Assembly (NCBI GenBank): GCA_963700155.1
Contig: OY969472.1
Location: forward strand, 744,690 to 808,689
Source of the DNA: an uncultured bacterium
GTDB lineage: Bacteria; Patescibacteriota; Dojkabacteria; J137
Reading direction: 5' to 3'
Length of the DNA: 64,000 nt
Shown: piece after piece, positions 4,757 to 51,371 of the stretch
How the letters are laid out: every line of letters starts with the position of its first letter
Position numbering within the stretch: the stretch's first letter is position 1
Notes under the pieces: model-generated
Seen by the model: only the letters and a program-made list of their open reading frames with translations
Databases searched by the model: none
What the model was told of the DNA's origin: nothing
Program-made: the position numbers and the translations under genes

Positions 4757-4769
4757 ATTATTATCTGTA

Positions 4770-5225: not shown

Positions 5226-5246
5226 AAAGTGAATTTTGAATATTAT

Positions 5247-5987: not shown

Positions 5988-5992
5988 GATTT

Positions 5993-6763: not shown

Positions 6764-6780
6764 ATTATATTTAAATTTAA

Positions 6781-7533: not shown

Positions 7534-7616
7534 AATTTAAATGATTAAATTTATGTCATGATTATACAATTATTCTGGAAATTATTAGAAAATAAATAAA
7601 AAGTTTAAGAGTAATC

Positions 7617-8342: not shown

Positions 8343-8361
8343 TTTGTTTATCTAAAATATA

Positions 8362-25647: not shown

Positions 25648-26063
25648 TTTTCAAGATTGATATAAAGGTAAAATTAATATGTCACTCTAGATTATAAATT
25701 GAATATGGTTTTTATTAAAGTCTTAAGATTTGATAAGTAATATCCTTTTAAAATTGTTCATTTTCTTAATCAGTAAAATAGTTCTATATACTCAAAGTGA
25801 TTATTGGTATGTTATGTTTATGTATCCAAGGAGTATTAAGTTGTTTATCGTAAATGCTATTAAAAATCAATATAGAACATTAAAAATTGATTTTTTAGAT
25901 GTTATTAGTTACAATCATAATAGAGCCTACGCTATCCTCAAAGTTTGGCGACATAGCTAACTCAGGCTCATGTAGGCTTCATGTGAGGTAAAATTCTTGG
26001 GTTTTCTCACTTCCAAGATTGAACTCGCTCTTTAACATATCATTCGTAATTAAATATTGTTTT

Positions 26064-26108
26064 GGTCTCCTCTATTTGTATTTTTTTAAGTATACATAGA
26101 GGAGATCA
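26064..26108 (+). promoter_or_regulatory. 12-bp-stem hairpin (GGTCTCCTCTAT...ATAGAGGAGATC, one G-U) 22 nt upstream of the acquired GT2 gene; RBS GGGAGGG follows
   Basis: I read the inverted repeat directly. It lies at the AT-rich to GC-rich transition. Confidence 0.3.
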
Positions 26109-26129
26109 AAACATTAGGGAGGGAATCCA

Positions 26130-27329
26130 ATGGCAGTAAGACTGATGGAACCCCAAATTCCTTCTCTGAGGGAGTTTGAGGAAGATGAACTTTGGGACTT
26201 GCTCTTCTATGGGCAAGCTCCAAAAAAACCTATAACACCTATCGTAGACTGTATGCTTCCTGCTCATGACGAGGAAGCAAACATCGAGGCAACCGTAGAG
26301 AGTTTGTTTTCACAAACTCTACAACCAAACCGTGTAATTGTTGCTGCAGATAACTGCAGCGACAATACTATCCCGATCCTTGAAAGATTGGTAGATAAAT
26401 ATCGTGGGCGGCTCATTTATTTTGAGACCGTTGATAATTCTGCCAAAAAAGCTGGAGCGCTGAATCAAGCGCTCCAGTACCTTTCACATGAGGCGCAGTA
26501 TGTGCTTCAGATGGATGCAGACACAAAGTTAAGCCCAAACTTGATAGAAGAAGCTATTAAAGAGCTTCGAGCTAATCACAAGTTGGGTGGTGTTTGTTCC
26601 AGGTTCGGAGTATTCCCCTACAAGGGGAAGAATCCATGGCATTGGTTTCTCTGGAAGTTACAGGAAATGGAGTACGCTACAAGCGACTCTAGCCGAGTTG
26701 AAGGCCTTGGGGGTACGAAAGTCCTCTCAGGGGCCGTCGTAGTATTCTGGAGATTTGCTCTTGAGCAAGTGTCGTGGGAACATGGCCTTAGTGAACCAGA
26801 ACAGAAAGATAAGGGAAATGTGTGGTCTGAGAGCACAATTGTCGAAGACTATTCATTGACCCTTGACCTGAAGGAACTTGGATGGAAAGTCCAAGCCGGG
26901 ATGGGCATGATGTCGTGGACCGATACCATGCTGACGTTGTGGGATCTCTGGGATCAGAGGTTCCGCTGGCATTACGGGACTTGGCTCGAGTTGGAGCGAC
27001 GCGGGTGGAATAAGACCACCCGTCACGATATTCTCGAGCTTTGTTTGCATTACTTCATATTGGTGTGCCTTGTGATTTTCTTAGGCACTTTGGTCGCGAT
27101 GGTGATAATTGGGATCCCGATTCAGTTCAACGCGATTGGGCTTTCGGTATTGCTCGTCGCGTGGGCAAATAGGTTGTACCGGTTCTCATATATGAGAGAG
27201 CCAAAATGGTACGATCTATTGATCGCGATCATTTTAATTCCTGAAGAAGTGTATTCTATCTACAGGAATATCAACCTGACCGTGGCTCTTATCCGGAGCT
27301 TGAGGACGAAGTCTCCGCAGAAGTGGTAA
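26130..27329 (+). CDS. Processive family-2 glycosyltransferase (PgaC/NodC/cellulose-synthase-like polysaccharide synthase) in a high-GC acquired segment
   Basis: It has DxD (QMDADTK), the Q(R/Q)xRW motif (DQRFRWHYG), and C-terminal TM helices. It is 399 aa. Local GC is about 50%, against a background of about 30%. Confidence 0.7.
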   Translation: MAVRLMEPQIPSLREFEEDELWDLLFYGQAPKKPITPIVDCMLPAHDEEANIEATVESLFSQTLQPNRVIVAADNCSDNTIPILERLVDKYRGRLIYFETVDNSAKKAGALNQALQYLSHEAQYVLQMDADTKLSPNLIEEAIKELRANHKLGGVCSRFGVFPYKGKNPWHWFLWKLQEMEYATSDSSRVEGLGGTKVLSGAVVVFWRFALEQVSWEHGLSEPEQKDKGNVWSESTIVEDYSLTLDLKELGWKVQAGMGMMSWTDTMLTLWDLWDQRFRWHYGTWLELERRGWNKTTRHDILELCLHYFILVCLVIFLGTLVAMVIIGIPIQFNAIGLSVLLVAWANRLYRFSYMREPKWYDLLIAIILIPEEVYSIYRNINLTVALIRSLRTKSPQKW

Positions 27330-27358
27330 ATGTTCGATAACAGGGAGGTATAACTACC

Positions 27359-27733
27359 ATGAACTACGATCCACCTTTCTTGCCGGTAACCGGAGCAGCT
27401 TTTGCCACTGGTGCTGGCGCATACTTACAATGGACGTGGCCAGTGATCCTGGCTGCGGCTGTTGTGTCGTTTGTAATTCTCGCATTTGGGATGATGCTCT
27501 TGCGACGGAATGAAAGCCGGCTGCTCAAATCCGGTGTCAAGGTTCGTCGCAGTACCCTCCCATACATGATCGGCGGAGTCATCGGCATTGTCGTGGGTAT
27601 CGTCGGCGCGGCGCTTGAATTACCCGCACTTTTCGTGATCCCAGCTATCCTGGTCTCGGTGATCCTCGTCGCGGCGCTGCTTGGGGGCTTTCGCAGCAAT
27701 TTCCCTAAACAGCAGCTCGCCCAAGTCGAATGA
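27359..27733 (+). CDS. Small polytopic membrane protein (124 aa) co-transferred with the GT2 synthase
   Basis: It has several hydrophobic helices and is rich in Gly and Ala. It is GC-rich and is followed by a strong terminator. Confidence 0.5.
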   Translation: MNYDPPFLPVTGAAFATGAGAYLQWTWPVILAAAVVSFVILAFGMMLLRRNESRLLKSGVKVRRSTLPYMIGGVIGIVVGIVGAALELPALFVIPAILVSVILVAALLGGFRSNFPKQQLAQVE

Positions 27734-27743
27734 TGTGTTAGAA

Positions 27744-27773
27744 GGGGGCGGTCCGACGTGTCGGACCGCCCCC
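27744..27773 (+). terminator. GC-rich rho-independent terminator-like hairpin GGGGGCGGTCCGAC..GTCGGACCGCCCCC
   Basis: This is a perfect 14-bp arm (at most 12 bp paired with a real loop). It lies downstream of the 124-aa gene at the GC-to-AT boundary. Confidence 0.6.
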
Positions 27774-27843
27774 TAAAACTTTCTTTTATAAATTCAAAAA
27801 TTTCTACTCTACTATAATCTTGAAATAGGTCGAATATTTTTAT

Positions 27844-33737: not shown

Positions 33738-35024
33738 TTATCTGCCCTTCTCTATCTTTGCACCAAGTCGTCTTAAGACCTGAATTATTTCAGGGAATCT
33801 TCTATAAAGTATATCTGCATTGTCAATTACAGTTGTACCTGATGCAGATAAAGCTGCAAGAACAAGAGCATGTGTACATTGCAGAATTGTTGAAGAATTG
33901 ATTTGTGTCCCTTTAAAACTACTTTCTCCAAGTGTAATAATTTGATTAGGGTTGGTCATTGTAAACTTTGCTTGCATCTTGAATAACTCCGTATATAGCT
34001 CGATAAGCTGTACTTCATACATATTTGAGTAAACTCTTATCGAACCACCGGCTTTTAATGCTAAAACTAAGGCTTGTGGAATTAAATCCACTGGAAATCC
34101 AGGCCATGGTTCATCTTTAATCTTATCCATATCGCCCTTTAAATTAGGTTTAGCGATTAATTTTTGCTTTCCCGGTACAAAGATATCCTCATCTCTTATT
34201 TCGACCTTTAAATTGAGTTTAGCGAAGTTATTAATAATTTGGGTCATATGTTGAGGAATTGCATTCTTAATTGTAATTTCTCCACCTGTAACTGCAGCAG
34301 CTACAATTAAACCTCCAATATCAATATGATCAGGTGGAACAGTCCATTCCCCTCCACTTAAACTCTCAACACCATCAATAATTAGTCGATTTGTTCCAAT
34401 TCCTTGAATTTGTGCCCCTAAATAATTTAAGAAATTGCATAAATCTTGAGTATGAGGTTCACAAGCAGCATTATAAATTATAGTTCTTCCCTTAGCTTTT
34501 ACAGCTGCTAAAATTAGGTTTTCTGTTCCTGTTACAGAAGCTTCTAATAGCCAAACATTTTCATTCCCTTTTAATCCTGGAGTTGATAGTTTATATCCAT
34601 CATTTTTATCTAAGTGTACATTTAATTCTTGAAGACCTTGAAACATTGCATCAAGTGGGCGATTCCCGAGCTTGCATCCCCCTCCATCTTTAATGGAAGC
34701 TCTTCCAAACCTCTCCAAAAGAGGACCTAAAAATATAAAAGTTGCTCTTTCTTTTGAAGCTAAAACCTCGTCAATATCTGGAGTTTTTATTGTTGTTCCA
34801 TCTAATCTTATACTGTTTCCTTCTAAGTATGATACTTTACCTCCAAGTTGTTTAAAAACATGGAGCATTACCCTAACAGAACTACTTTTAGGGACATTGT
34901 GAATAGTCACAGGTTCATCCGCTAAAACACATGCAGGAATTAACTTTACAATAGAATTCTTGTTTGGCATCGGTTCAACTTCGCCATGCAAATCATAACC
35001 TCCTGTTATTTTTAATGAAGACAT
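33738..35024 (-). CDS. murA: UDP-N-acetylglucosamine 1-carboxyvinyltransferase MurA
   Basis: It has the EPSP-synthase fold with a Cys-containing catalytic loop GGGCKLGNRPLD. It is 428 aa. Confidence 0.85.
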   Translation of the reverse strand: MSSLKITGGYDLHGEVEPMPNKNSIVKLIPACVLADEPVTIHNVPKSSSVRVMLHVFKQLGGKVSYLEGNSIRLDGTTIKTPDIDEVLASKERATFIFLGPLLERFGRASIKDGGGCKLGNRPLDAMFQGLQELNVHLDKNDGYKLSTPGLKGNENVWLLEASVTGTENLILAAVKAKGRTIIYNAACEPHTQDLCNFLNYLGAQIQGIGTNRLIIDGVESLSGGEWTVPPDHIDIGGLIVAAAVTGGEITIKNAIPQHMTQIINNFAKLNLKVEIRDEDIFVPGKQKLIAKPNLKGDMDKIKDEPWPGFPVDLIPQALVLALKAGGSIRVYSNMYEVQLIELYTELFKMQAKFTMTNPNQIITLGESSFKGTQINSSTILQCTHALVLAALSASGTTVIDNADILYRRFPEIIQVLRRLGAKIEKGR

Positions 35025-37077: not shown

Positions 37078-37248
37078 ATGACAACTTCAAATAATGCTCA
37101 AGTTTTGGGTGTAGGAATTGCTGGTGGATCCGGTTTAACATTATTAGGTGTACCTGTTGAAACTTCAGTAGCAATAGGTATCGGGGTCCTTTTTATTTTG
37201 CTTTGTGCATATTTAGTTTATAAATTCCGAAATAGAAAATTTAGATGA
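37078..37248 (+). CDS. Small membrane protein (56 aa) translationally coupled (ATGA overlap) to the downstream GT2 synthase; IcaD/PgaD-like accessory candidate
   Basis: The product is MTTSNNAQVLGVGIAGGSGLTLLGVPVETSVAIGIGVLFILLCAYLVYKFRNRKFR. Its stop overlaps the start of the 37245 gene. Confidence 0.4.
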   Translation: MTTSNNAQVLGVGIAGGSGLTLLGVPVETSVAIGIGVLFILLCAYLVYKFRNRKFR

Positions 37249-38453
37249 TAATAAATCAGATTTTAGGTTTATACCTACTACTGGCTTTAGTAAGAGCTGT
37301 ATATGCCCTCTGTATTGGCTTTTTTTATTTGCATAAATATCCAAAGCCAGATGCATCATATAATCCATTCATCAGCATAGTTATTCCAGCATGGAATGAA
37401 GAGATGGGAATAAAAAAGACATTAGATTCAGTTTTAAAAAGTACATACAAAAATTATGAAATTATAGTTGTTAATGATGGTTCTTCTGATTCTACAAAAT
37501 ACATTGTAGAAAGTTATCATAAAAAATATCCCAAAAAAGTTATACTATTTAATCAGAAGAACCAAGGAAAATATACCGCTTTAAACAAAGGTATCAAAAA
37601 TTCTAAAGGAGAAATTATTGTAACTATCGATGCAGATTCTTATGTATATCCTAATGCAATTCAACTATTAGTCGAAGCTTTGAGTGATAAATCATTTGAT
37701 GCAACTGTTGGTAAAATAATTGTAGGAAGCCCTGGCTCAAAGATTGGGGTTTCTAGACCTAAAAATTTAATAGGAGTGGTTCAGTTCTTTGAGTATATGT
37801 TTGGTTATCATATAAAAAAGACCCAACATCAGAATAATTCAATCTATATTTTACCTGGAGCATTTGCTGCTATGCGGAAAAGTGTTATTGAAGAGATAGG
37901 ATACTATGAGGGATATTCTAAGACTGAAGATTTTGACTTGTCTATGAAATTAAGAATGAATGGTAGTAGAATTTCATATATAGATGATGCATTATGTGTT
38001 ACGGAAGGGGCTTCTGATTTGAAAGGGTTAATTAACCAACGAACAAGATGGAGACATGGATTTTTAGTATGCTTACTTCATAGAAAAGATTACATTTTAA
38101 GTACTAAAAAAGGTATATATTTAACTTTCGTTGATTTCCCCTTGGTATTGTGGGGATTATTAGATATTTTAATTTACCCATTATTATTTGTTGTCCTCTC
38201 AATTCAAATTATAATATCAAGAGATATTTTATTATTTTTTGTTTTTTATATAATAATCCCATATTCATATTTAATGCTTTTGGATAAAGATGTTCTTGCT
38301 CATAAAGATCTTCTAAAATATCTACCTATTTTGCCATTTTTATTTTCTATAATAAACATAGTTGAGCATATAGCCTTATTAAAAGCTTCATACAGGATAA
38401 TAAAAAGAAAAGATACTGCGTGGACTCATTGGGTCAGAGTTGGAGTTCAATGA
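37245..38453 (+). CDS. Processive family-2 glycosyltransferase (PgaC/IcaA-like polysaccharide synthase), native composition
   Basis: It has the GT2 N-terminus SIVIPAWNEE...VVNDGSSD, DxD (TIDADS), QRTRWRHG (QxxRW), and C-terminal TM helices. It is 402 aa. Confidence 0.75.
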   Translation: MIINQILGLYLLLALVRAVYALCIGFFYLHKYPKPDASYNPFISIVIPAWNEEMGIKKTLDSVLKSTYKNYEIIVVNDGSSDSTKYIVESYHKKYPKKVILFNQKNQGKYTALNKGIKNSKGEIIVTIDADSYVYPNAIQLLVEALSDKSFDATVGKIIVGSPGSKIGVSRPKNLIGVVQFFEYMFGYHIKKTQHQNNSIYILPGAFAAMRKSVIEEIGYYEGYSKTEDFDLSMKLRMNGSRISYIDDALCVTEGASDLKGLINQRTRWRHGFLVCLLHRKDYILSTKKGIYLTFVDFPLVLWGLLDILIYPLLFVVLSIQIIISRDILLFFVFYIIIPYSYLMLLDKDVLAHKDLLKYLPILPFLFSIINIVEHIALLKASYRIIKRKDTAWTHWVRVGVQ

Positions 38454-39581
38454 TTAATTTAAAGGATAGTGAGCAATACTTTTTATTTGAAAGATCCAAT
38501 TATTCTGCTGAGAATTATCTATACCATTTGGATAATGTTTCCCTTGTTGAGAAAGTAAGATATCATTCCACTCTCCTCCCATCGCTAAATTTATAATAAA
38601 GTAGAAAGGTTTTGTGAATGGCCAATCTCTGAAATTGGTAGAGGATTTATTAACTGTGTGTACAACTGTGCCATCTACCGTATATTGAATTGAGTTAGTT
38701 TTCCACTCTATTCCATAAGTATGAAATTGAGTTGATAAATTTGAAACTTTAGTTCCTTTCGAATATGGATCATTATCTGCGACTAAAGAATTAAAGGTAT
38801 GAGCATCATGATAAACATAACTTGGCTCTACACCTAAAAATTCAATAATATCTATTTCTCCATCACCTTGGTAAGATAATTCATTTTGTTTTTCTTGTTG
38901 TGTTGCAATATTATCATGAAAATATGAACCATCTGTTGGTAATAGCCAAATAGCTGGGAACGTTCCGATTCCAGATGGAAGTTTAGCAACAATTTCAAAT
39001 TTTCCATAAGTTGCGTCAAAAAATCCTTTTGTATCAACTTTTCCTGATGTTATTGTACCATCAGACTCTACTTTAGCTTGTATTGTTAACAATCCATTTT
39101 CAATTTTTACATTTCCGGTTTTGTACATTTGTTTCTCATCGTTCCAAGCAGGATCCCAATCATCATTTATTCCATTTTGGATTCTAAACATTGAACTTAC
39201 AGAAGTCCCATTTGCCATACTAGAGAAATCCAGAAAATAATCTGACTTAGATGGTGATTGTTTAGGGGTCTGTGTATTATTAGTCTGACTTCCACTATCA
39301 GTAGGATTAGTTGAATTTTTAGGGGTAGGATTCGAATCTTTAGATAGTTTTGTTTTTTCACTAATTGAGTTTAAGCCTGCAACAATACCTTCTGAACCGC
39401 TATCTAATATATTTGACTCCCCAATTTCACTATTAGTTGGAATATCAGTTGATATAGGATTATAGCTTGTAACAAGGTAATGATTAAGTCTTGTTTGACT
39501 ATATTCATTTAACAATAGAACTTCAGCAAAAAGGATTGGAATTATTAACGTCGCAAGAAGTAATATACGGCGATTTTTCAT
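38454..39581 (-). CDS. Secreted glycoside hydrolase family 16 (laminarinase/beta-glucanase-like) with Ser/Thr-rich linker
   Basis: It has the GH16 catalytic motif ExDxxE (GEIDIIEFLG), an N-terminal TM/signal, and an STN-rich linker. It is 375 aa. Confidence 0.65.
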   Translation of the reverse strand: MKNRRILLLATLIIPILFAEVLLLNEYSQTRLNHYLVTSYNPISTDIPTNSEIGESNILDSGSEGIVAGLNSISEKTKLSKDSNPTPKNSTNPTDSGSQTNNTQTPKQSPSKSDYFLDFSSMANGTSVSSMFRIQNGINDDWDPAWNDEKQMYKTGNVKIENGLLTIQAKVESDGTITSGKVDTKGFFDATYGKFEIVAKLPSGIGTFPAIWLLPTDGSYFHDNIATQQEKQNELSYQGDGEIDIIEFLGVEPSYVYHDAHTFNSLVADNDPYSKGTKVSNLSTQFHTYGIEWKTNSIQYTVDGTVVHTVNKSSTNFRDWPFTKPFYFIINLAMGGEWNDILLSQQGKHYPNGIDNSQQNNWIFQIKSIAHYPLN

Positions 39582-39671
39582 CTAAATTACTAAAAATTCT
39601 TAACATACCAGTATACTATACTTCGTTTAGCTAAATTCTTCAAGAAAGAAGCGCAGGATGATTGTGTGAAT

Positions 39672-39702
39672 AAAGGGCGGCATTCGAAGAATGCCGCCCT
39701 TT
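39672..39702 (-). terminator. GC-rich hairpin AAAGGGCGGCATTC-gaa-GAATGCCGCCCTTT downstream of the 1343-aa gene
   Basis: It is a perfect 14-bp stem flanked by A/T, and it sits 17 nt after the stop. Confidence 0.6.
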
Positions 39703-39718
39703 GAATAATCTAACTAAT

Positions 39719-42700
39719 TTATAACTGTGGCTCCAATTCTGCCAATGCTTGGCTAATTGTTACAACAGGAATGCCACTATCTCTCATTGCATTAAGGTGA
39801 TCTGTGAATAATGTTGGTGTTGTATCATAAGGATCAGGATCAGTAGCTACTCTATGATATACCAATATTAACCACGTTCCTTCTCTTTGTGCTTGTGCAA
39901 TCCAACTTGCAACTTCTTCTCCTGTGGTATTATCCAAAATATTCTGAACTTTCAATCTACTTACATCAAAATTATCTTTACTATTAAACCCAGCATCAAC
40001 AGTTCTATGAACTGTGTAGTGCTGCATAATCTGATCTTTTACTGCTTGATTATATGCCCCAAAAGGTGTTGCAAAATAGTTTATAGGGCCATTAAGGAAG
40101 CTTCTAAGATAAGTTTGTGAATCAACAAGTTCTGTTTCAACTTCAGCCGGAGTTAATGTTCTCAAATCCGGATGAGTTATTGAATGAGATCCTATCTCAT
40201 AACCATCATCTTCGAATGACTTAATAATATCTTTAGCTTCCTGCTCTGTATAATCAGGGTTGCTCTGAATAAAGGTCGTTGCTTCGAATAAATCAGCTTT
40301 GAATCCATAAGAATCCATCATTGGTATTGCAGTATCTACATTATCTTCCCAGCTATCATCAAAGGTTAACGTTAATAATGCCCTGTTAAATGGTACTGGA
40401 GTGTATGGTGTAATATCATAATTATCTGTTGTTAATGTACCATTTTGAGAAAGCAGATGATAAATTACAACTGATACTGCATTAGCTGGCATTGTGAACG
40501 ATTCAGCGTAATGTGCCCAATCTGCAGCAGGTGGAGCTTCTGGAAGTTCCTGATAAAAGATTGAGTTGTCTTGCATATTCATTTCTAAAACTATTCTGCT
40601 GTCAACATCTGATTTGTAATAATCAGTAACAAGGTAATCTTCTCCAGGAGTTAATACTACTGGGTCATGAATCCATTTAGCATCTCCATCAACGTAGTTA
40701 GATACTGTAAGTCTCACACTGTGAGTTCCACTCTGTCCTTGATTCTTTAAGTATTCAAACTGTGCACTATTATTTCCCCAGGAGCTTGGTGCCCATGATA
40801 AAGGTCTTTTGCTTGTAGCTTCTGTTTCAAGGTCACCGTTTGGAACTGTTGAGCTTCCAGTTGGTGGTGCTATTTCAAATAAGTCATAGTTGTCTGTCCA
40901 AAGTTCTCCATTTTGTCCTATAAACTGAAGAACTGTTACATTGTTTACATCTGAAGGAACTAAAAATGCATATTCTGATTTTATCCAGTCAGAACTAGCT
41001 GGATTAGTTCCCATCCATTGATAAGTAATCGAGCCGTCAGTATGTCCTAATTGAACTGTAGTGTCTGTTGGTACTGTTGATTTATAGTAGTTAGAGTAAG
41101 AGTAATATGAACCTGATTTTACAGTTACTGGATCGAAGAACCATTTCGCATCTCCACTTACATAATTAGTCATATTTATGTAAATACTTCTGGTTCCATC
41201 CTGACCTTCGTTTAAATACTGAAAATCTGGTGTATTGTTTCCATAAGAACTTGACTGCCAGAATGCAGGAACATTTCCATTTGGTGTCTCTACCGAAGGA
41301 TTAGGAACAATATTATCTCCAGTATCTGGTGGTGTCACTGTTTTATGTAAAATTGAGTAATCGTCAGTCCAAAGGTCTCCTACTCCATTAAGAATGTGTA
41401 ATACAGTAACTTTCGATACATTTTCTGGTACTATGTAGTCAAAATTTGATTCTATCCAATCAGCACTCGGTGAAAGCGAGTCAATTTCAATAAATTGATT
41501 GGAGTTATCAGTCATTAAATATTGCAAGTATATTAATGTACTTGTATTTGACTTGTAATAATTACTAAAACTATAAGTCTCGCCAGGAGTTACACTAACC
41601 GCATCATGTAACCATTTTGCATCTCCATCTGTATAACTTGACATAGATATATGCAGACTCTTATTACCCGAGTGTGCATCATTTGAGTAATCAAAAATAG
41701 CTGAATTTGTACCCCAGCTACTGGATGTCCAATGAGCAGGTGAAATTCCATTCTGGTTTTCTACTGAAGGATTTAATATTTGATTATCTTCTGGTCCTGG
41801 AGGTGGTTCAGGTGTGATATGCAATAGTGAATAATCATCGGTCCATAAATCACCTAATCCTGGCAATATATGCAAAGCTCTAATTGTAGAAGCATTGTTT
41901 ATTGCTGTAAAATCATAGCTTGTCATTGTCCAGTCTGTACTAGGTGTAAGCATTCCAAGAGAAGTATATTGATAGCTCCCGTCATTCATATGAAACTCGA
42001 TATATACATAGGTATTGGTTGTTGCTCTATAGTAATCACTAAATCTATATGTTTCTCCTGGTGTTACAGGTGCTGGTGAGTGATACCATTTCGCATCTCC
42101 ATCAGTGTAACTTGTCATAGAAACATGAAGACTTTTACTTCCTGTATGCGGTGAATTTGAGTATTCAAATACTGGAGTATTTGTACCCCATGTATTAGTT
42201 TGCCAATCAATAGGATTCCCACTTGAATCTTGTGCTTCTGCTGAAGGATTCAAAATCTGATTTTCATCTGGAGCTGGTGCTGCAATATGTAATATAGAAT
42301 AATCATCTGTCCAAAGATCACCTACACCGGCTAATATATGTAAGACTCGAACAGTTGAAACATTTTCTGGAACTAAGAAATTAAAGTTAGTCTGGCTCCA
42401 ATCAGCACTAGCCTGAGGGTTACTCAGGTATACATATTGGAATGATCCATCGTTCATTGCATATTCTAAAAATAAAAGAGTCTCTCTAGATGCTTTATAA
42501 AAGTCATTAAATTTATAAATTTGACCAGGTGTAACATTTACAGGTTGGTGCATCCATTTCGCATCTCCATCAGTATAACTTGAGATTGAAACGTGTATAC
42601 TTTTAGTGCCTGTGTGAGCATCGTTAGAGTAGTCAAAAGAATGAGTATTTGTTCCCCAAGTATTAGTCTGCCAATTTGCAGGATTAATTCCATTTGGAAC

Positions 42701-43750
42701 CTCCACAGAAGGGTTTAATACTTGATTTTCATCAGCAGTTGGTAATGTAACATGCAAAATTGAAAAATCATCAGTCCATAAATCTCCTACTCCATTTAAT
42801 ATATGTAATATAGTAACCTGATTAACATTATTAGGGACTGTAAAGTTATAGTTTACTTCTAACCAATCTGGATTTGCTGGTAGTGATTCAAGATATACAT
42901 ATTGGTGTGAGTTGTCATTTAACTGGTAATCTAAAAACAAAATTGTACTAGTTGTTGACTTATAAAAATCACTAAAATTATAAGTCTCACCTGGTGTAAC
43001 ATTAACTGGATCGTGATACCATTTTCCATCTCCATCAGTATAGCTTGTAGTTGAGACATGAAGACTTTTACTTCCAGTATGAGCATCATTTGAATACTCA
43101 AAAGTTGTACTATTGTTTCCCCAGTTACTTGTATGCCAGAATGCTGGATTTGTACCATTAGAAGTTTCTACCGATGGATTTAAAATTTGATTATCATTTG
43201 GACCAGGCAAAGTGGCTTGTACAATAGAGTAATCATCAGTCCAAAGATCCCCTACCCCAGCAATTAAATGCATCATAGTTACCTGTGTAGTATTTGAAGG
43301 TGCTGTAAAATTATAATTAGTACTTACCCAATCTGCACTTGCAGGTATATTAGCAATGAACTGGTACTGTTTTTCTCCATTAACAAGATAATATAAGTAC
43401 AATATAGTGTCAGTACTAGATTTGTAAAAATCAGAAAAAGTATATGTTTCACCTGGTGTAACAGTTACAAAATCATGTAACCATTCAGAATCACCACTTG
43501 TATAACTTGTTGTTGAAACATGTAAGCTTTTACTGCCAGTATGAGCATCATTAGAATACTCAAATGTTGAGGTATTTGTTCCCCAAGTATAGGTCTGCCA
43601 ATTTACTGGATCTCCGTTAACATCTTGAGTTTCAGCGGATGGGTTTTGAACAAGATTTTCACCTGCTGCATTAACTTTAATAGAGTTAGTCGAAGAAAAT
43701 AAAAGGAGAGTGAACGCTGCAACGATCAAAGTAAGTATTAATCGCTTCAT
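39719..43750 (-). CDS. Giant secreted protein: seven repeated CBM4/9/22-like beta-sandwich modules fused to a C-terminal CE4 (NodB) polysaccharide deacetylase domain
   Basis: It has a signal peptide and ~150-aa repeats of the form NPSVE..NG.NPA.W.T..WGTN...F.YSNDAHTG.KSLHVS.TSYTDGDAKW.HDPVNVTPGETY.F.DFYKS. The CE4 motifs are TFDDS, GSHSITHPDL and ATPFG. It is 1343 aa. Confidence 0.7.
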   Translation of the reverse strand: MKRLILTLIVAAFTLLLFSSTNSIKVNAAGENLVQNPSAETQDVNGDPVNWQTYTWGTNTSTFEYSNDAHTGSKSLHVSTTSYTSGDSEWLHDFVTVTPGETYTFSDFYKSSTDTILYLYYLVNGEKQYQFIANIPASADWVSTNYNFTAPSNTTQVTMMHLIAGVGDLWTDDYSIVQATLPGPNDNQILNPSVETSNGTNPAFWHTSNWGNNSTTFEYSNDAHTGSKSLHVSTTSYTDGDGKWYHDPVNVTPGETYNFSDFYKSTTSTILFLDYQLNDNSHQYVYLESLPANPDWLEVNYNFTVPNNVNQVTILHILNGVGDLWTDDFSILHVTLPTADENQVLNPSVEVPNGINPANWQTNTWGTNTHSFDYSNDAHTGTKSIHVSISSYTDGDAKWMHQPVNVTPGQIYKFNDFYKASRETLLFLEYAMNDGSFQYVYLSNPQASADWSQTNFNFLVPENVSTVRVLHILAGVGDLWTDDYSILHIAAPAPDENQILNPSAEAQDSSGNPIDWQTNTWGTNTPVFEYSNSPHTGSKSLHVSMTSYTDGDAKWYHSPAPVTPGETYRFSDYYRATTNTYVYIEFHMNDGSYQYTSLGMLTPSTDWTMTSYDFTAINNASTIRALHILPGLGDLWTDDYSLLHITPEPPPGPEDNQILNPSVENQNGISPAHWTSSSWGTNSAIFDYSNDAHSGNKSLHISMSSYTDGDAKWLHDAVSVTPGETYSFSNYYKSNTSTLIYLQYLMTDNSNQFIEIDSLSPSADWIESNFDYIVPENVSKVTVLHILNGVGDLWTDDYSILHKTVTPPDTGDNIVPNPSVETPNGNVPAFWQSSSYGNNTPDFQYLNEGQDGTRSIYINMTNYVSGDAKWFFDPVTVKSGSYYSYSNYYKSTVPTDTTVQLGHTDGSITYQWMGTNPASSDWIKSEYAFLVPSDVNNVTVLQFIGQNGELWTDNYDLFEIAPPTGSSTVPNGDLETEATSKRPLSWAPSSWGNNSAQFEYLKNQGQSGTHSVRLTVSNYVDGDAKWIHDPVVLTPGEDYLVTDYYKSDVDSRIVLEMNMQDNSIFYQELPEAPPAADWAHYAESFTMPANAVSVVIYHLLSQNGTLTTDNYDITPYTPVPFNRALLTLTFDDSWEDNVDTAIPMMDSYGFKADLFEATTFIQSNPDYTEQEAKDIIKSFEDDGYEIGSHSITHPDLRTLTPAEVETELVDSQTYLRSFLNGPINYFATPFGAYNQAVKDQIMQHYTVHRTVDAGFNSKDNFDVSRLKVQNILDNTTGEEVASWIAQAQREGTWLILVYHRVATDPDPYDTTPTLFTDHLNAMRDSGIPVVTISQALAELEPQL

Positions 43751-43897
43751 AAATATATGAGATTAATATTTTAAATATTTATTTCAGTATATCATTAATA
43801 TTTAGACATTGTTACATTTATATTGTAAATATAGGGCATTGGAGGCCTAAAAGTTCCTTCAGATTTAGGGATTTTGTATTTTAGAAAATTTAAATAA

Positions 43898-43930
43898 AAA
43901 AAGCGGCGACTTTTCAAGTCGCCGCTTTAA
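43898..43930 (-). terminator. Rho-independent terminator AAAGCGGCGAC..GTCGCCGCTTT followed by T7 run on minus strand
   Basis: It is a perfect 11-bp GC-rich stem followed by TTTTTTTATTT, and it sits 17 nt after the stop of the 904-aa gene. Confidence 0.7.
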
Positions 43931-43946
43931 AAAACTTTCATAAGTT

Positions 43947-46661
43947 TTAAAGTTGAGGTTCTAACTCTGCTAAAGCTTGGCTAATTGTTACAACTTTAAT
44001 CCCACTATTATTTACAGCTGCCATTTGGTCTGCAAATTCAACTGGTGTTGTATCATAAGTTCCAGGATCAGTAGCTACTCTATGATAAACTAGTATTAAC
44101 CATGTGCCTTCTTGTTGAGCCTGGTTAATCCAGGCTGTTATATCTTCAGCCGTAGTATCACTAAATACGTTCTGAACTTTTAATTGACTTACATCAAAAT
44201 TATCTTTGCTATTAAATCCTACATTTACCGTTCTATGAACTGTATAAGTATGCATTATCTGATCTAATACTGATTGATTATATGATCCATATGGTGTTGC
44301 AAAATAATTTACTGATGTTCCAAGAATACTTTCAAGATAACTTTGAGAATCTACAAGTTCTGTTGTGACTTGTGCAGGTGTAAGTGTGGTTAAATCAGCA
44401 TGATCAACTGTGTGAGATCCAATTTCTTGCCCATCTGCAGCCATGTTCTGAACTCTTGTTACAGCATCAGGAAGATCTGAGTTTTGAATATTTGAAGTTA
44501 TAAAGAACCAGTTGCCTTTATATCCATATTGATCTAATACTGGAAATGCTGTGTCATAATTATCAAGCCATCCATCATCATCAAATGTTAAAGTTACTAA
44601 AGGTTCATTGAATGGCGTTGGAACATATTCTTCAACTTTATAATTATCAGTGATTAAGAATCCTGAACTTTGAAGAATATGAAGAATATTGATACTCATA
44701 GCATTTGCAGGCATTGTAAAAGTTCCAGTGAAAAGTACCCAATCTGTGCTTGGCGCTGCATTTCCTATATCAATGTAATTTACACTCCCATCTTGCATAT
44801 TTACAGCGATAGTAACTTTAGTTTCAACATCTGATTGGTAGTAATCCGAGATTTTATAGCTTACTCCTGGGGTCAAATTTATTGAGTCGTTAAACCATTT
44901 AGCGTCTCCATCGGTGTAGTTAGTAATTGTTGTTTTAACGCTATGAGTTCCATCATATCCTGTATTCAAATATTGAAATTTTGCATTGTTTGTTCCCCAA
45001 GAATTTGTATTCCAGAATTGTGGTTGATTTGGATTTGATGCTAATGTGTCTTCTAATGAAGCATTTGGTAAAAGTGACCCATCAGGTAGAATTTCTTTCA
45101 GGCTGTAATTATCAGTCCAAAGCTCTCCATTTTGTGCCATAACATGGAAAACAGTTAATTTTGTAGCACCTACAGGAGGCAAGAAACTATATTCAGATTT
45201 TGCCCAGTTTGCATTAATTGGATTTGTTCCTAACCAAAGGTAAGATAAAGAACCGTCTCCCATTTGAAATTGAACTACAGTTTCGCTTGGTGCAGTTGAT
45301 TTATAATAGTCAGAGAATAAATAATGTGAGTCATCTGAGATTGAAACAGGATCAAAATACCATTTAGCATCTCCATCAGTATAGTTAGTAACATTTACAT
45401 AAACGCTTTTTGATCCTTCTTGACCTTCGTTTAGATATTGAAATTGTGCTTTATTTGTTCCCCAAGAATTTGACTGCCAGAAAGCAGGGTCACTTCCATT
45501 TGGAGTTTCAACTGATGGATTAGCAACAGCATTTTCTCCAGGATCTGGAATAGGTGGCGGTTCTGGCGTTGTTACGAGTATGATTGAATAATCATCAGTC
45601 CAAAGATCTCCAACGCCAGCAATTAAATGGAATACAGTTACTTGTTTAGCATTTGTTGGTGCAGTAAAGTTATAATCTACTTGAGCCCAATCCGCACTTG
45701 ATCCTGGGCCTCCTAAATAAACATATTGATTAGAACCATCATTCATTAAGTACTGTAAAACTACCTCTGTATTTTCAGTTGATTTATAGTAATCAGTAAA
45801 ATTATATGTTTCGCCTGGAGTAACATTTACAGGATCGTGATACCATTTGGCATCCCCATCTGTATAACTAGTAGTTGTAACATGAACGCTTTTATTGCCT
45901 GTATGTGCTGAATTTGAATATTCAAATGTTGAAGTATTCGTCCCCCAAGCATTATTTTGCCAGTACGCTGGATTCCCATTAGAATCTGGGGTTTCTACTG
46001 ACGGATTTAAAATTTGATTTTCATCAACTGCTGGCGGAGTAACTGGTGGATCTACTACAGGCGGATCTACTACAGGTGGATCTACCACTGGTGGATCTAC
46101 TACAGGTGGTTCGGTAGGTGTTGTTGATGTAGTTTCAGTAAGTGAAAAGTTATCAGTCCAAAGCTGTCCAACTGAAGAGATTACATGAAAAATTGTTACT
46201 TGTGTAGAATTATCTGGAACTGTGAAGTTTGCAGTTATATTAGTCCAAGCTGAATTTGCTCCAACTGATGTTAAATATTCATATTGATATGAATTTGATC
46301 CAACTGTATATTGAGCAATAATGTCTGTACCTACATTTGATTTATATGAATCACTGAATTCATATGTTGTCCCTGCAGTTACATTTACTGGATCTGGATA
46401 CCATTTTGCATCTCCGTTTCCTTGTGCAGTAACTGTTACTCCTAATGCTTTTCCAATACTTCCATCTGTAGTAGAATAAGTGAAATCCGCAACTGTCCCT
46501 CCCCAAGACCCTGTATTAAAGTTTGCAGGTTGAGTATCCCCGGTTTCAACATCGGGATTAGGAATTAAGTTGTCTGCAGCACTTACTTTTAATGGACCTG
46601 ATAAAGTAAATAATATAATGCTTGAAGCTAATGAGACTAACAGAAGGTTTAATCGTTTCAT
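43947..46661 (-). CDS. Giant secreted paralog: CBM-like repeat modules, Pro-rich PPVVD linker, C-terminal CE4 (NodB) deacetylase
   Basis: It has a signal peptide, a (PPVVD)x4 linker, and the same repeat consensus as the 39719 gene. The CE4 motifs are TFDDD, GSHTVDHADL and ATPYG. It is 904 aa. Confidence 0.7.
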   Translation of the reverse strand: MKRLNLLLVSLASSIILFTLSGPLKVSAADNLIPNPDVETGDTQPANFNTGSWGGTVADFTYSTTDGSIGKALGVTVTAQGNGDAKWYPDPVNVTAGTTYEFSDSYKSNVGTDIIAQYTVGSNSYQYEYLTSVGANSAWTNITANFTVPDNSTQVTIFHVISSVGQLWTDNFSLTETTSTTPTEPPVVDPPVVDPPVVDPPVVDPPVTPPAVDENQILNPSVETPDSNGNPAYWQNNAWGTNTSTFEYSNSAHTGNKSVHVTTTSYTDGDAKWYHDPVNVTPGETYNFTDYYKSTENTEVVLQYLMNDGSNQYVYLGGPGSSADWAQVDYNFTAPTNAKQVTVFHLIAGVGDLWTDDYSIILVTTPEPPPIPDPGENAVANPSVETPNGSDPAFWQSNSWGTNKAQFQYLNEGQEGSKSVYVNVTNYTDGDAKWYFDPVSISDDSHYLFSDYYKSTAPSETVVQFQMGDGSLSYLWLGTNPINANWAKSEYSFLPPVGATKLTVFHVMAQNGELWTDNYSLKEILPDGSLLPNASLEDTLASNPNQPQFWNTNSWGTNNAKFQYLNTGYDGTHSVKTTITNYTDGDAKWFNDSINLTPGVSYKISDYYQSDVETKVTIAVNMQDGSVNYIDIGNAAPSTDWVLFTGTFTMPANAMSINILHILQSSGFLITDNYKVEEYVPTPFNEPLVTLTFDDDGWLDNYDTAFPVLDQYGYKGNWFFITSNIQNSDLPDAVTRVQNMAADGQEIGSHTVDHADLTTLTPAQVTTELVDSQSYLESILGTSVNYFATPYGSYNQSVLDQIMHTYTVHRTVNVGFNSKDNFDVSQLKVQNVFSDTTAEDITAWINQAQQEGTWLILVYHRVATDPGTYDTTPVEFADQMAAVNNSGIKVVTISQALAELEPQL

Positions 46662-46831: not shown

Positions 46832-46862
46832 AGAGGTGCAGGGAATTCTTCCCTGCACCTCT
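46832..46862 (-). terminator. Perfect 14-bp GC-rich hairpin AGAGGTGCAGGGAA-ttc-TTCCCTGCACCTCT downstream of the GC-elevated membrane-protein gene
   Basis: I read this directly. It contains a GAATTC site, and no T-tract follows. Confidence 0.4.
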
Positions 46863-46922: not shown

Positions 46923-47909
46923 TTATGTTGGCTTAGGATCTAGCTTTAGTGCAAGTGCAACTATGATACTTCCGTATAACCAGAGCCAGTTTTGAGGCTC
47001 AAGAAGAAAAGGAAGTATTGGGGAGAAAGCACTAGCTTTTGCTAGAAAAGTGTTAGGGAACCAAAGATCGGGTATTAATCCGAAAAATATAGAGAAGCAG
47101 ATTCCCCAAATTGCCCCCCATTTGATTACCTTCCACCACTCTTTTGTTACAAGGATAACTAGTGGTAGAACGAAAATTACACTCGGTTTCATCACTGCTA
47201 GTACACCTAGTAAAGCAGCTAACGTAAAATGTCTACGTTTTGCTGCAATTAGATATCCAGCAACGAGGGCAAAAATCAGCGGTGTCGGCTGCCCAAGCCA
47301 GAATGCTGCTGAGAGTGAATTCCCATGAATTCCAGTCCCAATATCTTCCACAAGCATCCATTGAAACCGAAAATTTGGTTGATCCCAGGGATAACCTCCG
47401 ATTATAGGCAAGATAATCCCAAAGGTTAAAATCACGGCGGCCCAGGTATGTTTGTGGTTGACATTTAATGCAAGCACTAGAGCAATAAAAAGCATTGCCC
47501 CCATATTGATTATACCTGAAACCTCGAACGCATCCTTGAATTCCATAGCTCCCAACGGTGCCATTAGGAGAGCGTGCCATGGTGTATGACCGTAGAAATA
47601 AGTCCCCCAGCCTCCATCATTTTGGATGTATTCACTCCAGAGTTCTGATAAATTTTGTTTTGTTTCAGGAGGTCCAATATAACGATAGACCTCCTCCCAT
47701 TCTCCAGCTCCGGCAAGTTTTCCGGCTTGCCAGAACATTGCAAAATCCGAATCCCAAGGGGGTTTAGGCTGGTTTAACCGATCGAACAAGATCTTGTTCG
47801 CAGTAAATAGAAAAAATAACACTGCGAAGAATAAAACAAGCCAGCGTACGGCTTCCTTTGTTTCTGTCCATATTGAAGCGATCAGTCTGCTAGCTTCTAT
47901 GTTTGCCAT
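46923..47909 (-). CDS. Polytopic integral membrane protein (328 aa), GC-elevated; possibly a GT-C/DUF2029-like glycosyltransferase
   Basis: It has about 8-9 TM helices and a Trp-rich sequence. Local GC is about 45%. The family assignment is speculative. Confidence 0.4.
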   Translation of the reverse strand: MANIEASRLIASIWTETKEAVRWLVLFFAVLFFLFTANKILFDRLNQPKPPWDSDFAMFWQAGKLAGAGEWEEVYRYIGPPETKQNLSELWSEYIQNDGGWGTYFYGHTPWHALLMAPLGAMEFKDAFEVSGIINMGAMLFIALVLALNVNHKHTWAAVILTFGIILPIIGGYPWDQPNFRFQWMLVEDIGTGIHGNSLSAAFWLGQPTPLIFALVAGYLIAAKRRHFTLAALLGVLAVMKPSVIFVLPLVILVTKEWWKVIKWGAIWGICFSIFFGLIPDLWFPNTFLAKASAFSPILPFLLEPQNWLWLYGSIIVALALKLDPKPT

Positions 47910-49369: not shown

Positions 49370-50026
49370 TTATTCTTTTTCTATGAGTGTTTTTTTGTTT
49401 TCTTTAGAACTGTTCACTTCTTTACTTACCTTGTAAGAAACCATTTCTTTGGAAGGGTAAGGTTTGAGCATACTTTTTAAAGTGTCGAGATCTTTAATTT
49501 CTGAATTCAGCCAGACTTCTTCGAACTTTTTAGGTAAAATAACAGGCATTCGATCATGAACTTGCTTTACTAAACTATTTGCCGCACAAGTAATGATTGT
49601 AAAAGTTCTTATGTTTGCTCCTTTTTCATTCTTCCAATCATCATAAATACCTGCAAAAGAGAAAATATCTCTGTCCTTCAATCTAAATAAGTAAGGTTGT
49701 CTACTCTTTCCTTCTTTTGCCCATTCATAAAAGAAACTTGCAGGAATCAAACATCTTTTATTAAATAAACTGAGTCTATAAGAAGGTTTTGTTTCTATTT
49801 CCTCTGCTCTAGCATTTATCATTTTAAAACCAATCTTTGAATCCTTTGCCCAATGCGGAATAAATCCCCACTGCATAAATTCAAGATCAATTTTATCTTT
49901 CATAATTACAACAGGAACTTTCTTTGAAGGCGCAATGTTATAGTCATCTTGAACAAGTAAATCTATTGGCAGATTATAATATTTACTTAAACCATTTTCT
50001 GTTACTAATCCGAATCGTCCGCACAT
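49370..50026 (-). CDS. yedK: SOS response-associated peptidase (SRAP/YedK family, abasic-site DNA-protein crosslink protein)
   Basis: It starts with the invariant MCGRF. It is 218 aa. Confidence 0.8.
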   Translation of the reverse strand: MCGRFGLVTENGLSKYYNLPIDLLVQDDYNIAPSKKVPVVIMKDKIDLEFMQWGFIPHWAKDSKIGFKMINARAEEIETKPSYRLSLFNKRCLIPASFFYEWAKEGKSRQPYLFRLKDRDIFSFAGIYDDWKNEKGANIRTFTIITCAANSLVKQVHDRMPVILPKKFEEVWLNSEIKDLDTLKSMLKPYPSKEMVSYKVSKEVNSSKENKKTLIEKE

Positions 50027-50063
50027 ATTAAAAATTTTTATATAATTTATTTTAACATTTCAT

Positions 50064-51371
50064 TTAGATCTTTATTTTTAACAATTCCTGCCAGCTTGTT
50101 GTAAATCTCTGAGATTTTCTTTCTTGTTTCATCATCCAATTTTTTCTCATCCCCTGACTACCCATCTTTATAGTATTACTTCCCCACTTTAAATTAATCT
50201 TATCAAAAACATTCATTATTTTAGTTTCCCGCTTATCTATTGCTTCTTCTAAAATTGGACTAGTAAATAAATGTAATTGTTTGTGACTCTGTGGCTCTAT
50301 TCCAGATAACATTACTCCTGCCCTTTTAAACTTATATCCATCTTTAAAAATAGTTTTTAAACCATGCAAAGCAGCTTTAGTTAGTGTCGGTAAATATGAG
50401 CTTGGCGGATCAAGTTCAAGTGTTATTGAATTATAATATTGAGGATCTTTTTGATTAAAAAGACTTGTATGAATAAATATTGTTACTAATTTTGCTAAGG
50501 AGTTTTGTTCTCTGAGTTTTTCACTTGCGATTGATACATAAAGTGAAATAGCTTCAATTAAGTCTGCTATTTTGGTGACGGGGATTCCGAATGATCTTGT
50601 ACTTGCAATAATTTTTTTAGGTTCTGGTGCATTATCTATTGGAATACAGGAAATACCATGTAATTCCAAGTATGTTCTTTCTCCTTGAACTGTCATTTTT
50701 TTTCTTACGACATATCTATTAAAATACTTAAAATCTTTTGCAGTATATATTCCATTCATTCTTAAAAATTTAGTGTATTGACGTCCAACACCCCAAATAT
50801 CTTCAACATCTACTTTCTTAAGATAATCATCAATATTATTAATTTCAAATTCATTCAGTACACCATTGAATTCAGGAGTTTTTTTTACAATTTTATTCAA
50901 AGCCTTTGCTAAAGTTTTTGTTGATGCAATTCCGATTGAAATTGGAATACCTGTGCTCTGAAATACTTTCTCTCTTATTTTTCTACAATATTCTGTAAGA
51001 TTATTTATCTTAAGGTTTGTGAAGTTTAGGAAGGCTTCATCTATAGAATAAAGTTCTATATCGGGTGTGAACTCGTTTAAAATTCCCATTACACGCATTG
51101 AGAGATCTGCATACAAAGTGAAGTTAGATGAATAAACAAATACCATTCCGCTATTGATAAGATTTTTGAGTTCGAAAAAAGGCTGACCCATTTTGATTCC
51201 TAATTTTTTAGCTTCGTTTGATCTTGCAATTACACATCCGTCATTATTTGAAAGAACAATAACAGGTTTCCCATTGAGTTTGGGGTTAAAAAGCCTTTCA
51301 CATGAGGCGTAAAAATTGTTGCAGTCAACAATAGCGAATATTTTTTTCTTTGAATAATTTGAGAGGTCCAT
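50064..51371 (-). CDS. Y-family translesion DNA polymerase (DinB/UmuC-like)
   Basis: The N-terminus reads IFAIVDCNNFYASCERLFNPKLNGKPVIVLSNNDGCVIARSNEAKKLGIKMGQP. It is 435 aa. Confidence 0.8.
   Translation of the reverse strand: MDLSNYSKKKIFAIVDCNNFYASCERLFNPKLNGKPVIVLSNNDGCVIARSNEAKKLGIKMGQPFFELKNLINSGMVFVYSSNFTLYADLSMRVMGILNEFTPDIELYSIDEAFLNFTNLKINNLTEYCRKIREKVFQSTGIPISIGIASTKTLAKALNKIVKKTPEFNGVLNEFEINNIDDYLKKVDVEDIWGVGRQYTKFLRMNGIYTAKDFKYFNRYVVRKKMTVQGERTYLELHGISCIPIDNAPEPKKIIASTRSFGIPVTKIADLIEAISLYVSIASEKLREQNSLAKLVTIFIHTSLFNQKDPQYYNSITLELDPPSSYLPTLTKAALHGLKTIFKDGYKFKRAGVMLSGIEPQSHKQLHLFTSPILEEAIDKRETKIMNVFDKINLKWGSNTIKMGSQGMRKNWMMKQERKSQRFTTSWQELLKIKI

Follow-up and report, generated by a model that had tools for sequence, protein, structure and literature searches.

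Staphylococcal IcaB, E. coli PgaB and the carbohydrate esterase family 4 (CE4) domain of Streptomyces MatB deacetylate poly-N-acetylglucosamine (PNAG). IcaD and PgaD each have about 100-140 aa and two transmembrane segments. Streptomyces MatB consists of an extracellular CE4 domain, a transmembrane helix and an intracellular glycosyltransferase family 2 (GT2) domain, and it makes PNAG (10.1101/089920). Here we analyzed a locus with comparable parts in a 64,000-nt stretch of DNA (hereafter the window) from contig OY969472.1 of an uncultured bacterium assigned to the Dojkabacteria (Patescibacteriota). The locus encodes a small membrane protein, a GT2 synthase, a glycoside hydrolase family 16 (GH16) enzyme, and two very large proteins, A and B, that carry arrays of carbohydrate-binding module (CBM)-like repeats ahead of a C-terminal CE4 domain. 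Judging from sequence comparisons, we see an even chance that these genes make up a synthase-dependent cell-surface polysaccharide module.

In the explanation that we favor, the 56-aa protein and the GT2 would form a membrane synthase that polymerizes and extrudes a beta-linked polymer, probably one that contains N-acetylglucosamine (GlcNAc). Sec-secreted A and B would hold a glycan through their arrays of CBM4/9-type beta-sandwich modules, and their metal-dependent CE4 domains would remove acetyl groups from it outside the cell, which would leave the glycan cationic and adhesive. The membrane-anchored GH16 would trim or remodel a beta-glucan-type linkage in the same matrix. Coupling of the synthase to the deacetylases is plausible from gene neighborhoods: the adjacency of GT2 and CBM-CE4 genes across phyla is the main argument that CBM-CE4 enzymes act on the product of the neighboring synthase, and we infer by extension that the window GT2 may supply the substrate of A and B.

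We recovered this adjacency from the best 80 of 487 loci in a collection of species-representative genomes (best segment identity, 47%). These 80 came mostly from metagenome-assembled genomes (MAGs) of Saccharibacteria/Saccharimonadia, and also from Dactylosporangium, Ktedonobacter and a few other lineages. A synthase-type (PgaC-like) GT2 lay at most 10 kb from the CBM-CE4 gene in 58 of them, with examples from Saccharibacteria, Dactylosporangium and Ktedonobacter, and in 40 of the 58 it was upstream on the same strand, with a median gap of 410 bp; in 52 it was within 1.5 kb. About 11 of the 22 loci without a GT2 have incomplete flanking sequence. When neighbors were clustered, no family but GT2 was conserved in more than 17 loci; sortase (17), GH16 (15), MurA (14) and MurB (12) were rarer, and the MurA homolog was typically directly upstream of the GT2. 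MurA uses UDP-GlcNAc. The QxxRW motif was kept in 58 of 63 GT2 ORFs (open reading frames) from these loci. Nine of these GT2s were scanned with NCBIfam, and PgaC_IcaA was the best model for eight (75-186 bits); the best model for the Dactylosporangium GT2 of locus L021 was the XrtP-associated glycosyltransferase. In locus L078, an ORF of about 1130 aa (6552-9950) fuses CE4 to a PgaC-like GT2 immediately upstream of the CBM-CE4 gene. The MAG that contains L078 is labeled Gammaproteobacteria, and the label may reflect misbinning. A search of the 80 loci for homologs of the 56-aa protein, of a GT87-like protein encoded upstream of B, of DUF1003 and of the flanking ORFs had no matches, which means that none of them belongs to the conserved neighborhood of the family. 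A search of a paper library found no report on the pairing of a synthase with CBM-CE4 proteins in Saccharibacteria.

Both A and B begin with a Sec-type signal peptide, for which the -3/-1 rule predicts cleavage between VNA and A and between VSA and A, respectively. Their C-terminal domains are 64% identical to each other and matched PF01522 at 83.0 bits (A) and 97.9 bits (B), against a gathering threshold (GA) of 23.1. A first-pass annotation of the window had assigned them to CE4 from the motifs TFDD[SD] and HSxxHP. Motif 1 (TFDD, with the catalytic-base Asp and a metal-binding Asp) was confirmed as TFDDS in A and TFDDD in B; motif 2 (H[ST]xxH, with two metal-binding His) reads HSITH in A and HTVDH in B, so the longer HSxxHP form holds for A and gives way to HTVDHA in B. 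These motifs align with those of the solved structures 6dq3, 7ax7 and 8hfa, and motif 5 (LxH, with the catalytic-acid His) is present in both proteins as WLILVYH. In a comparison of 23 homologs, D695, D696, H750, H754 and H860 (the His of motif 5) were invariant, as was R810 (in HRTV), 18 residues downstream of motif 3. By these alignments the Asp-His-His triad is intact in both domains. The best NCBIfam model for the CE4 domains was HfsH (positions 31-245 of 249), at 68-74 bits versus a cut-off of 400. The closest solved structures include 6dq3, a cell-wall linkage-unit deacetylase, together with 7ax7 and 2c71, which are esterase domains from xylanase-type enzymes.

The remainder of A and B is built largely from a module of about 155 aa, bounded by NPSVE...LWTDD, with seven copies in A and four in B, in agreement with the four to seven first described. 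The 11 repeats are 33-67% identical and share 16 invariant columns, including G-D-x-K-W and several aromatics. Full-length A and B had no CBM match in Pfam. We scanned six representative repeats (A1, A6, A7, B1, B2 and B4) singly against PF02018 (CBM_4_9; GA 25.9); B4 (38.0) and B1 (32.2) scored above the threshold, A7 (21.9) and A6 (15.8) scored below it, and A1 and B2 had no match. A profile of all 11 repeats, searched against the PDB, retrieved CBM4-2 of Rhodothermus marinus Xyn10A (1k42, E=1.7e-7) and the CBM4 of Thermotoga Lam16A (1gui, E=4e-3), with CBM16 weaker. An AlphaFold (AF2) model of B4 (predicted local distance difference test, 82.9) is an all-beta sandwich of 10 strands, and Foldseek matched it with a probability of 1.0 to CBM4-2, CBM22, CBM16 and CBM11 (TM-score 0.55-0.76), as expected of the CBM fold that had been proposed for the repeats. 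The same search also matched phage tailspike sugar-binding domains. The PDB profile search and the structural model agree in assigning the module to the CBM4/9/16/22 superfamily, as does Pfam for two of the six repeats scanned. Neither result that would have overturned the first-pass reading, repeats without a match to any CBM family or CE4 domains that lack the triad, was obtained.

The repeats also bear on the relationship between A and B. Repeats A1-A5 are 52-63% identical to one another and 57-67% identical to B2, A6 resembles B3 (59%) and A7 resembles B4 (47%), while B1 is divergent. A thus arose from a B-like ancestor of four repeats, whose second repeat type expanded internally to five copies. 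We considered and rejected a recent DNA-level amplification in A, as Tandem Repeats Finder detected no DNA-level repeat in A and only a 15-nt linker repeat in B. Because no other DNA-level tandem repeat is left, the amplification in A is old. The 15-nt unit encodes the (PPVVD)n linker between B1 and B2, is present in 4.3 copies (46045-46109) and marks a place where strains may differ in length.

The synthase matched PF00535 (142 bits, E=2e-41), PF13632 and Chitin_synth_2 (PF03142; 33.8 bits, above the GA of 27). The CelA cellulose synthase model scored 52 bits on it, below the score of the PgaC/IcaA model. A search of solved structures for clues to its product returned only generic GT-A and BcsA matches. 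Its motifs (D78, DAD129-131, TED227-229 and QRTRW265-269) and hydrophobic segments, one at the N-terminus (aa 1-19) and three at the C-terminus (aa 291-309, 320-338 and 355-373), form a layout that marks it, by prediction, as a processive synthase embedded in the membrane. Hydropathy of the 56-aa protein indicates a Gly-rich, weakly hydrophobic segment, one strong transmembrane helix and a basic tail (KFRNRKFR). The stop codon (TGA) of its gene overlaps the GT2 start codon (ATG) by 4 nt in ATGA, within the sequence AGATGATAA, as the translational coupling first suggested would have it.

We identified orthologs of the window GT2 with 40-72% identity. In all nine contexts compared (the window, L082, L084 and L086-L091), a homolog of the small protein is encoded directly upstream of a GT2 of about 396 aa; the two genes overlap by 4 nt in three contexts (window, L082 and L084) and are separated by 11-27 nt in the other six (L086-L091). 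This gene order makes the small membrane protein a conserved partner of this GT2. Members of its family have in common the N-terminal motif M-[YT]-x-x-N-x-x-[QA]-[ILV]-L-G, a transmembrane helix and a basic tail, and make up only 13 clusters, all unnamed, in a search of 5.8 billion proteins. Six of the CBM-CE4 loci (L005, L009, L015, L052, L060 and L077) contain other ORFs of 38-74 aa that end at most about 50 nt before the GT2 start. Those ORFs have a core of MY.LP.AGPS, then a transmembrane helix and a basic tail, and resemble a bare LPXTG-type sorting signal.

CBM-CE4 and GH16 genes lie near the small-protein and GT2 pair only in the window and in L084, the contig of its closest relative. 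There the order is CBM-CE4, GH16, GH16, small ORF and GT2, all on one strand, with two GH16 copies where the window has one. In L084, two overlapping ORFs (588 and 318 aa; 4674-7383) take the place of an intact CBM-CE4 gene, and a frameshift or duplication breaks the N-terminus of the GT2 (9910-10008); these breaks are either pseudogenization or assembly errors.

The GH16 enzyme matched PF00722 (73.3 bits versus a GA of 22, E=2e-20). It has an N-terminal transmembrane anchor (aa 6-24), an S/T/N/P-rich linker and a catalytic domain with EIDIIE at aa 242-247. Its best PDB matches were laminarinases (5wut at E=3.6e-30, 3iln and 3azx; range, E=3.6e-30 to 1e-21). With this gene, the window keeps the usual set (MurA, GT2, GH16 and CBM-CE4) in a rearranged order. 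All of the ORFs and domains that the first-pass annotation had named (GT2, GH16, CBM4/9-like repeats and CE4) were recovered at its coordinates.

Coordinates of the features at the locus, given as positions within the window
Feature	Position	Strand	Basis or details
Small membrane protein, 56 aa	37078..37248	+	ORF and translation, hydropathy
Processive GT2 synthase, 402 aa, PgaC/NodC/chitin-synthase-like	37245..38453	+	Pfam, NCBIfam, motifs
GH16, 375 aa, laminarinase-type	38454..39581	-	Pfam, PDB matches
A, 1343 aa: signal peptide, seven CBM4/9-like repeats, C-terminal CE4	39719..43750	-	
CE4 (NodB) domain of A	39722..40393	-	TFDDS, HSITHP, ATPFG, LILVYH
Repeat array of A	40394..43663	-	A1 43205-43663, A2 42740-43198, A3 42275-42733, A4 41807-42268, A5 41333-41791, A6 40862-41320, A7 40394-40858
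Terminator-like hairpin between the B stop and the A start	43900..43928	-	13-bp stem and T run
B, 904 aa: signal peptide, B1, (PPVVD)n linker, B2-B4, C-terminal CE4	43947..46661	-	
CE4 (NodB) domain of B	43950..44615	-	TFDDD, HTVDHA, ATPYG, LILVYH
Repeats of B	44616..46577	-	B1 46122-46577, B2 45564-46025, B3 45081-45539, B4 44616-45083
Terminator-like hairpin upstream of B, parting B from the preceding gene	46832..46862	-	14-bp stem
MurA-like gene (EPSP_synthase fold)	33738..35024	-	PF00275, 193 bits; context, component status not proven

Several observations weigh against the explanation that we favor. The small ORF and GT2 are on one strand and GH16, A and B on the other, and the GT2 and GH16 genes converge, their stop codons meeting at 38453/38454, so the earlier statement that GH16 follows the synthase had to be corrected. 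Because the synthase pair is convergent and terminator-like hairpins flank B, the locus is a neighborhood and not one operon; the same convergence, with hairpins between B and A, excludes co-transcription of the synthase pair with GH16, A and B. Away from the window and L084, the remaining seven contexts of the pair have neither CE4 nor GH16 nearby. In three of them (L088, L089 and L091) the pair is directly beside a type IV secretion set (TrbC, TrbL, TraG-like and TraC-like), with a DNA methylase and a restriction enzyme near the pair and, in L088, also a relaxase, which suggests that it is carried there on an integrative or conjugative element. Given these seven contexts and the constant small partner, the pair is best described as an autonomous two-gene module. 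The GT2s that adjoin CBM-CE4 genes in the related loci are mostly 23-30% identical to the window GT2 (33-34% in Ktedonobacter and L078), and by this comparison the small protein and GT2 of the window lineage hold the place that a different PgaC-like GT2 has in Saccharibacteria.

The proteins themselves add to these points. The best NCBIfam model for the window GT2 was PgaC_IcaA (TIGR03937), which aligned over model positions 34-401 of 407 at 180.9 bits versus a cut-off of 422.3; with a score this far below the cut-off, the GT2 is classed as a relative of PgaC/IcaA and not as an equivalog. The 56-aa protein had no Pfam match at E<=0.01, no NCBIfam match at E<=0.001 and no similarity to IcaD or PgaD. 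What survives of the first-pass likeness to IcaA/IcaD is the small partner, conserved in nine of nine contexts; the family assignments that the likeness implied do not. In the CE4 domains, the canonical Arg of motif 3 (RxPY), which supports the catalytic base, is absent, the motif reading ATPFG in A and ATPYG in B, and it is absent too in the nearest solved relative, PplD (6dq3; AYPSG). The GH16 is laminarinase-like and closest to beta-1,3-glucanases, which does not fit a PNAG system, and we know of no GH16 that cleaves PNAG or chitin. The solved CBMs closest to the repeats are binders of xylan or beta-glucans, and the GH16 and CBM4 affinities together point towards beta-glucan. The PNAG-like logic of synthase plus CE4 was accordingly upheld in part: GT2 adjacency recurs in the related loci, whereas the window holds no operon, orthologs of the pair are usually far from CE4 and GH16, and the hydrolase is of laminarinase type.

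The same features allow other explanations. It is possible, though some way short of probable, that the secreted GH16, A and B attack exogenous glycans in foraging or on a host, and that the adjacent GT2 pair is functionally unrelated to them here. Candidate targets would be the fungal wall, with its beta-1,3-glucan and chitin, and, on an actinobacterial host, its wall polysaccharide or its peptidoglycan. Such a role would suit the laminarinase-type GH16, the presence of CBM4-family relatives on laminarinases and xylanases, and CE4 domains whose closest solved relatives include the linkage-unit deacetylase and the xylanase-type esterase domains. It would suit equally well a GT2 pair that sits on the other strand and occurs elsewhere without GH16 or CBM-CE4, and a family that is common in probable epibionts. 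However, the adjacency of CBM-CE4 and synthase is very strong and crosses phyla, which is not expected of a purely catabolic enzyme. It also holds in free-living Dactylosporangium and Ktedonobacter, and the conserved neighbors in the related loci include neither a sugar transporter nor genes for downstream catabolism.

The affinities of GH16 and the CBMs could also mean that the polymer itself is a beta-glucan. The GT2 would then make a beta-1,3- or beta-1,3/1,4-glucan (curdlan-like or mixed-linkage) that the CBM arrays bind and GH16 remodels, with the CE4 domains acting as O-acetyl esterases, in the manner of CE4 enzymes of the acetylxylan-esterase type, and not as N-deacetylases. The CBM4 match to the Lam16A module 1gui and the CE4 matches to 7ax7 and 2c71 are consistent with this, and the donor sugar of the GT2 cannot be fixed from sequence. 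We nonetheless consider it unlikely: the best models for the GT2 are PgaC/IcaA, Chitin_synth_2 (above threshold) and NodC, with CelA lower; no acyltransferase able to O-acetylate a glucan was found among the neighbors scanned by Pfam; and the recurrent MurA and MurB neighbors point to UDP-GlcNAc chemistry. MurA near the locus, and the class A penicillin-binding protein encoded within the same window, could instead be taken as signs that A and B modify the cell's own peptidoglycan. They would then be deacetylases of GlcNAc or N-acetylmuramic acid of the PgdA/PdaC kind, tethered to the wall by their CBMs and serving lysozyme resistance or control of autolysis. The CE4 domains do match PgdA, PdaA and PdaC structures and models, but they score 26-44 bits against the peptidoglycan deacetylase equivalog models, the cut-offs of which are 400-800. 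To our knowledge, CBM4/9 modules are not peptidoglycan binders, and a conserved synthase-type GT2 partner would be left unexplained. We regard this explanation as very unlikely.

A synthase-dependent surface polysaccharide, the explanation that we favor, would draw in a large protein family. A search with B retrieved at least 701 proteins, mostly with PF01522 and PF02018 and of 720, 880 or 1050-1200 aa; these homologs are annotated 'polysaccharide deacetylase family protein', and most have a precomputed PF02018 match. Among the top 120 proteins, 83 have three repeats, 34 have four, one has five and one has two, and seven were found only in A of the window. A profile search of 1.84 billion representative proteins returned 2808 at E<=1e-3 and 851 at E<=1e-30, mostly with two to four repeats and a handful with five to seven. 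P0260 (1846 aa) has seven repeats, CE4, and Ig- and cadherin-like domains, and P0259 (1907 aa) has six repeats, CE4, and PKD and bacterial Ig-like domains. The number of CBM-like repeats on a deacetylase had been called unusual; the array is instead the rule for this family, and only the seven of A are at the upper extreme. P0264 (1504 aa) has five repeats of the same CBM type with glucose/sorbosone dehydrogenase, PKD and Big_7 domains and has no CE4 match at E<=1e-5, so the module also occurs outside deacetylases.

The gene set is thus fairly ordinary, widespread in Saccharibacteria and some actinomycetes, and biochemically unstudied. Its domains, the logic of synthase plus CE4 and the CBM-CE4 architecture were already known, the last being annotated in hundreds of genomes. 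Specific to the window are the tandem duplication, the expansion to seven repeats and a distinct GT2 subtype with an unannotated small partner. Taken alone, the window mainly yields a correct annotation and a local expansion from four to seven repeats, with tandem duplication, in a common family, rather than a new kind of system. The part worth follow-up is the pairing of synthase and CBM-CE4 that runs through the family in Saccharibacteria. Little is known of the chemistry of the envelope and of host attachment in Saccharibacteria-like ultra-small bacteria, and if the coupling is real, it provides a testable candidate for their surface or adhesive polysaccharide. It also defines a large CE4 subfamily that is biochemically untouched, with the 851 strong matches among representative proteins. 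A broader conjecture, which we hold as doubtful, is that a PgaC-like synthase and a CE4 with a CBM4/9 array, frequently with a GH16, sortase, MurA or MurB gene in the vicinity, form a lineage-wide, uncharacterized surface-polymer system of Saccharibacteria that is shared with actinobacterial host lineages. Its product could be a partly deacetylated GlcNAc polymer for attachment of the epibiont, and the membrane peptides of 38-57 aa encoded upstream of the synthases could be synthase subunits of a new class; some of them resemble bare LPxxG-type sorting signals.

Other genes in the window were recorded alongside the locus. Directly upstream of B, on the minus strand, 46923-47909 encodes a polytopic membrane protein of 328 aa with a GT87/DUF2029-like score of 22 bits versus a GA of 25; it may be a GT-C-type glycosyltransferase. 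We rejected it as a part of the system for its sub-threshold score and lack of conservation in the related loci. Farther along the same strand (49370-51371), a gene for an SOS-response-associated peptidase (SRAP) adjoins a Y-family polymerase gene (IMS, IMS_C and DUF4113); both are unrelated to the locus. A second synthase-type GT2 of 399 aa (PF00535, PF13632 and PF13641) is encoded at 26130-27329 on the plus strand and is followed by a 124-aa ORF without a Pfam match (the pair spans 26130-27733). The two genes are in a patch at about 26000-27800 with 44-57% GC versus about 30% for the genome, which from its composition looks like a horizontally acquired insert. This second GT2 shares 31.5% identity (151 bits) with the GT2 that adjoins CBM-CE4 in the Dactylosporangium locus L021.

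Compared with described systems, the locus resembles icaADBC and pgaABCD in having a processive GT2 (D, DxD, TED and QxxRW), a gene for a small membrane protein and a secreted CE4. It differs in the GT2, which falls far short of the PgaC/IcaA cut-off (181 versus 422 bits), and in the small protein, which has 56 aa, one clear transmembrane segment and no IcaD or PgaD match. No IcaC- or PgaA-like families were found among the window neighbors scanned; the window also has no GH153 domain, its hydrolase being GH16, and its genes are not in a single operon. The co-directional order of the ica and pga type is not found in the window but is seen in L084 and in the 40 co-directional loci among the 58 with a GT2. 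Two single enzymes that act on surface polysaccharides are also close to the CE4 domains. Caulobacter HfsH is their best NCBIfam model, although the scores remain far under its cut-off, and Streptococcus PplD (6dq3) is the best PDB match and, like A and B, is without the canonical motif-3 Arg. We know of no CBM arrays on HfsH or PplD. With the CBM4/9/16/22 modules of xylanases and laminarinases (1k42 and 1gui), the repeats share a beta-jelly-roll fold, the PF02018 matches of B1 and B4 and the 1k42 profile match; they differ in being only 14-19% identical and in forming arrays of four to seven on a CE4 instead of a glycoside hydrolase.

The likeness to Streptomyces MatAB lies in the pairing, within an envelope of Gram-positive type, of a PgaC-like GT2 and an extracellular CE4, with a small or unannotated partner gene beside the synthase, and the CE4-GT2 fusion itself recurs in one related locus (L078). 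In the window, by contrast, CE4 is on separate secreted proteins with four and seven CBM4/9-like modules, a GH16 is present, and the synthase gene runs towards the CE4 genes from the opposite strand. The CBM-CE4 proteins of Saccharibacteria, Dactylosporangium and Ktedonobacter, with three to four CBM_4_9 modules, have the same architecture and conserved residues as A and B, and B is a typical four-repeat member that is 37-55% identical to them. The window departs from these loci in the seven repeats of A versus a norm of two to four, in its two tandem paralogs, and in a GT2 of another subtype (23-30% identity), which comes with a small partner of its own.

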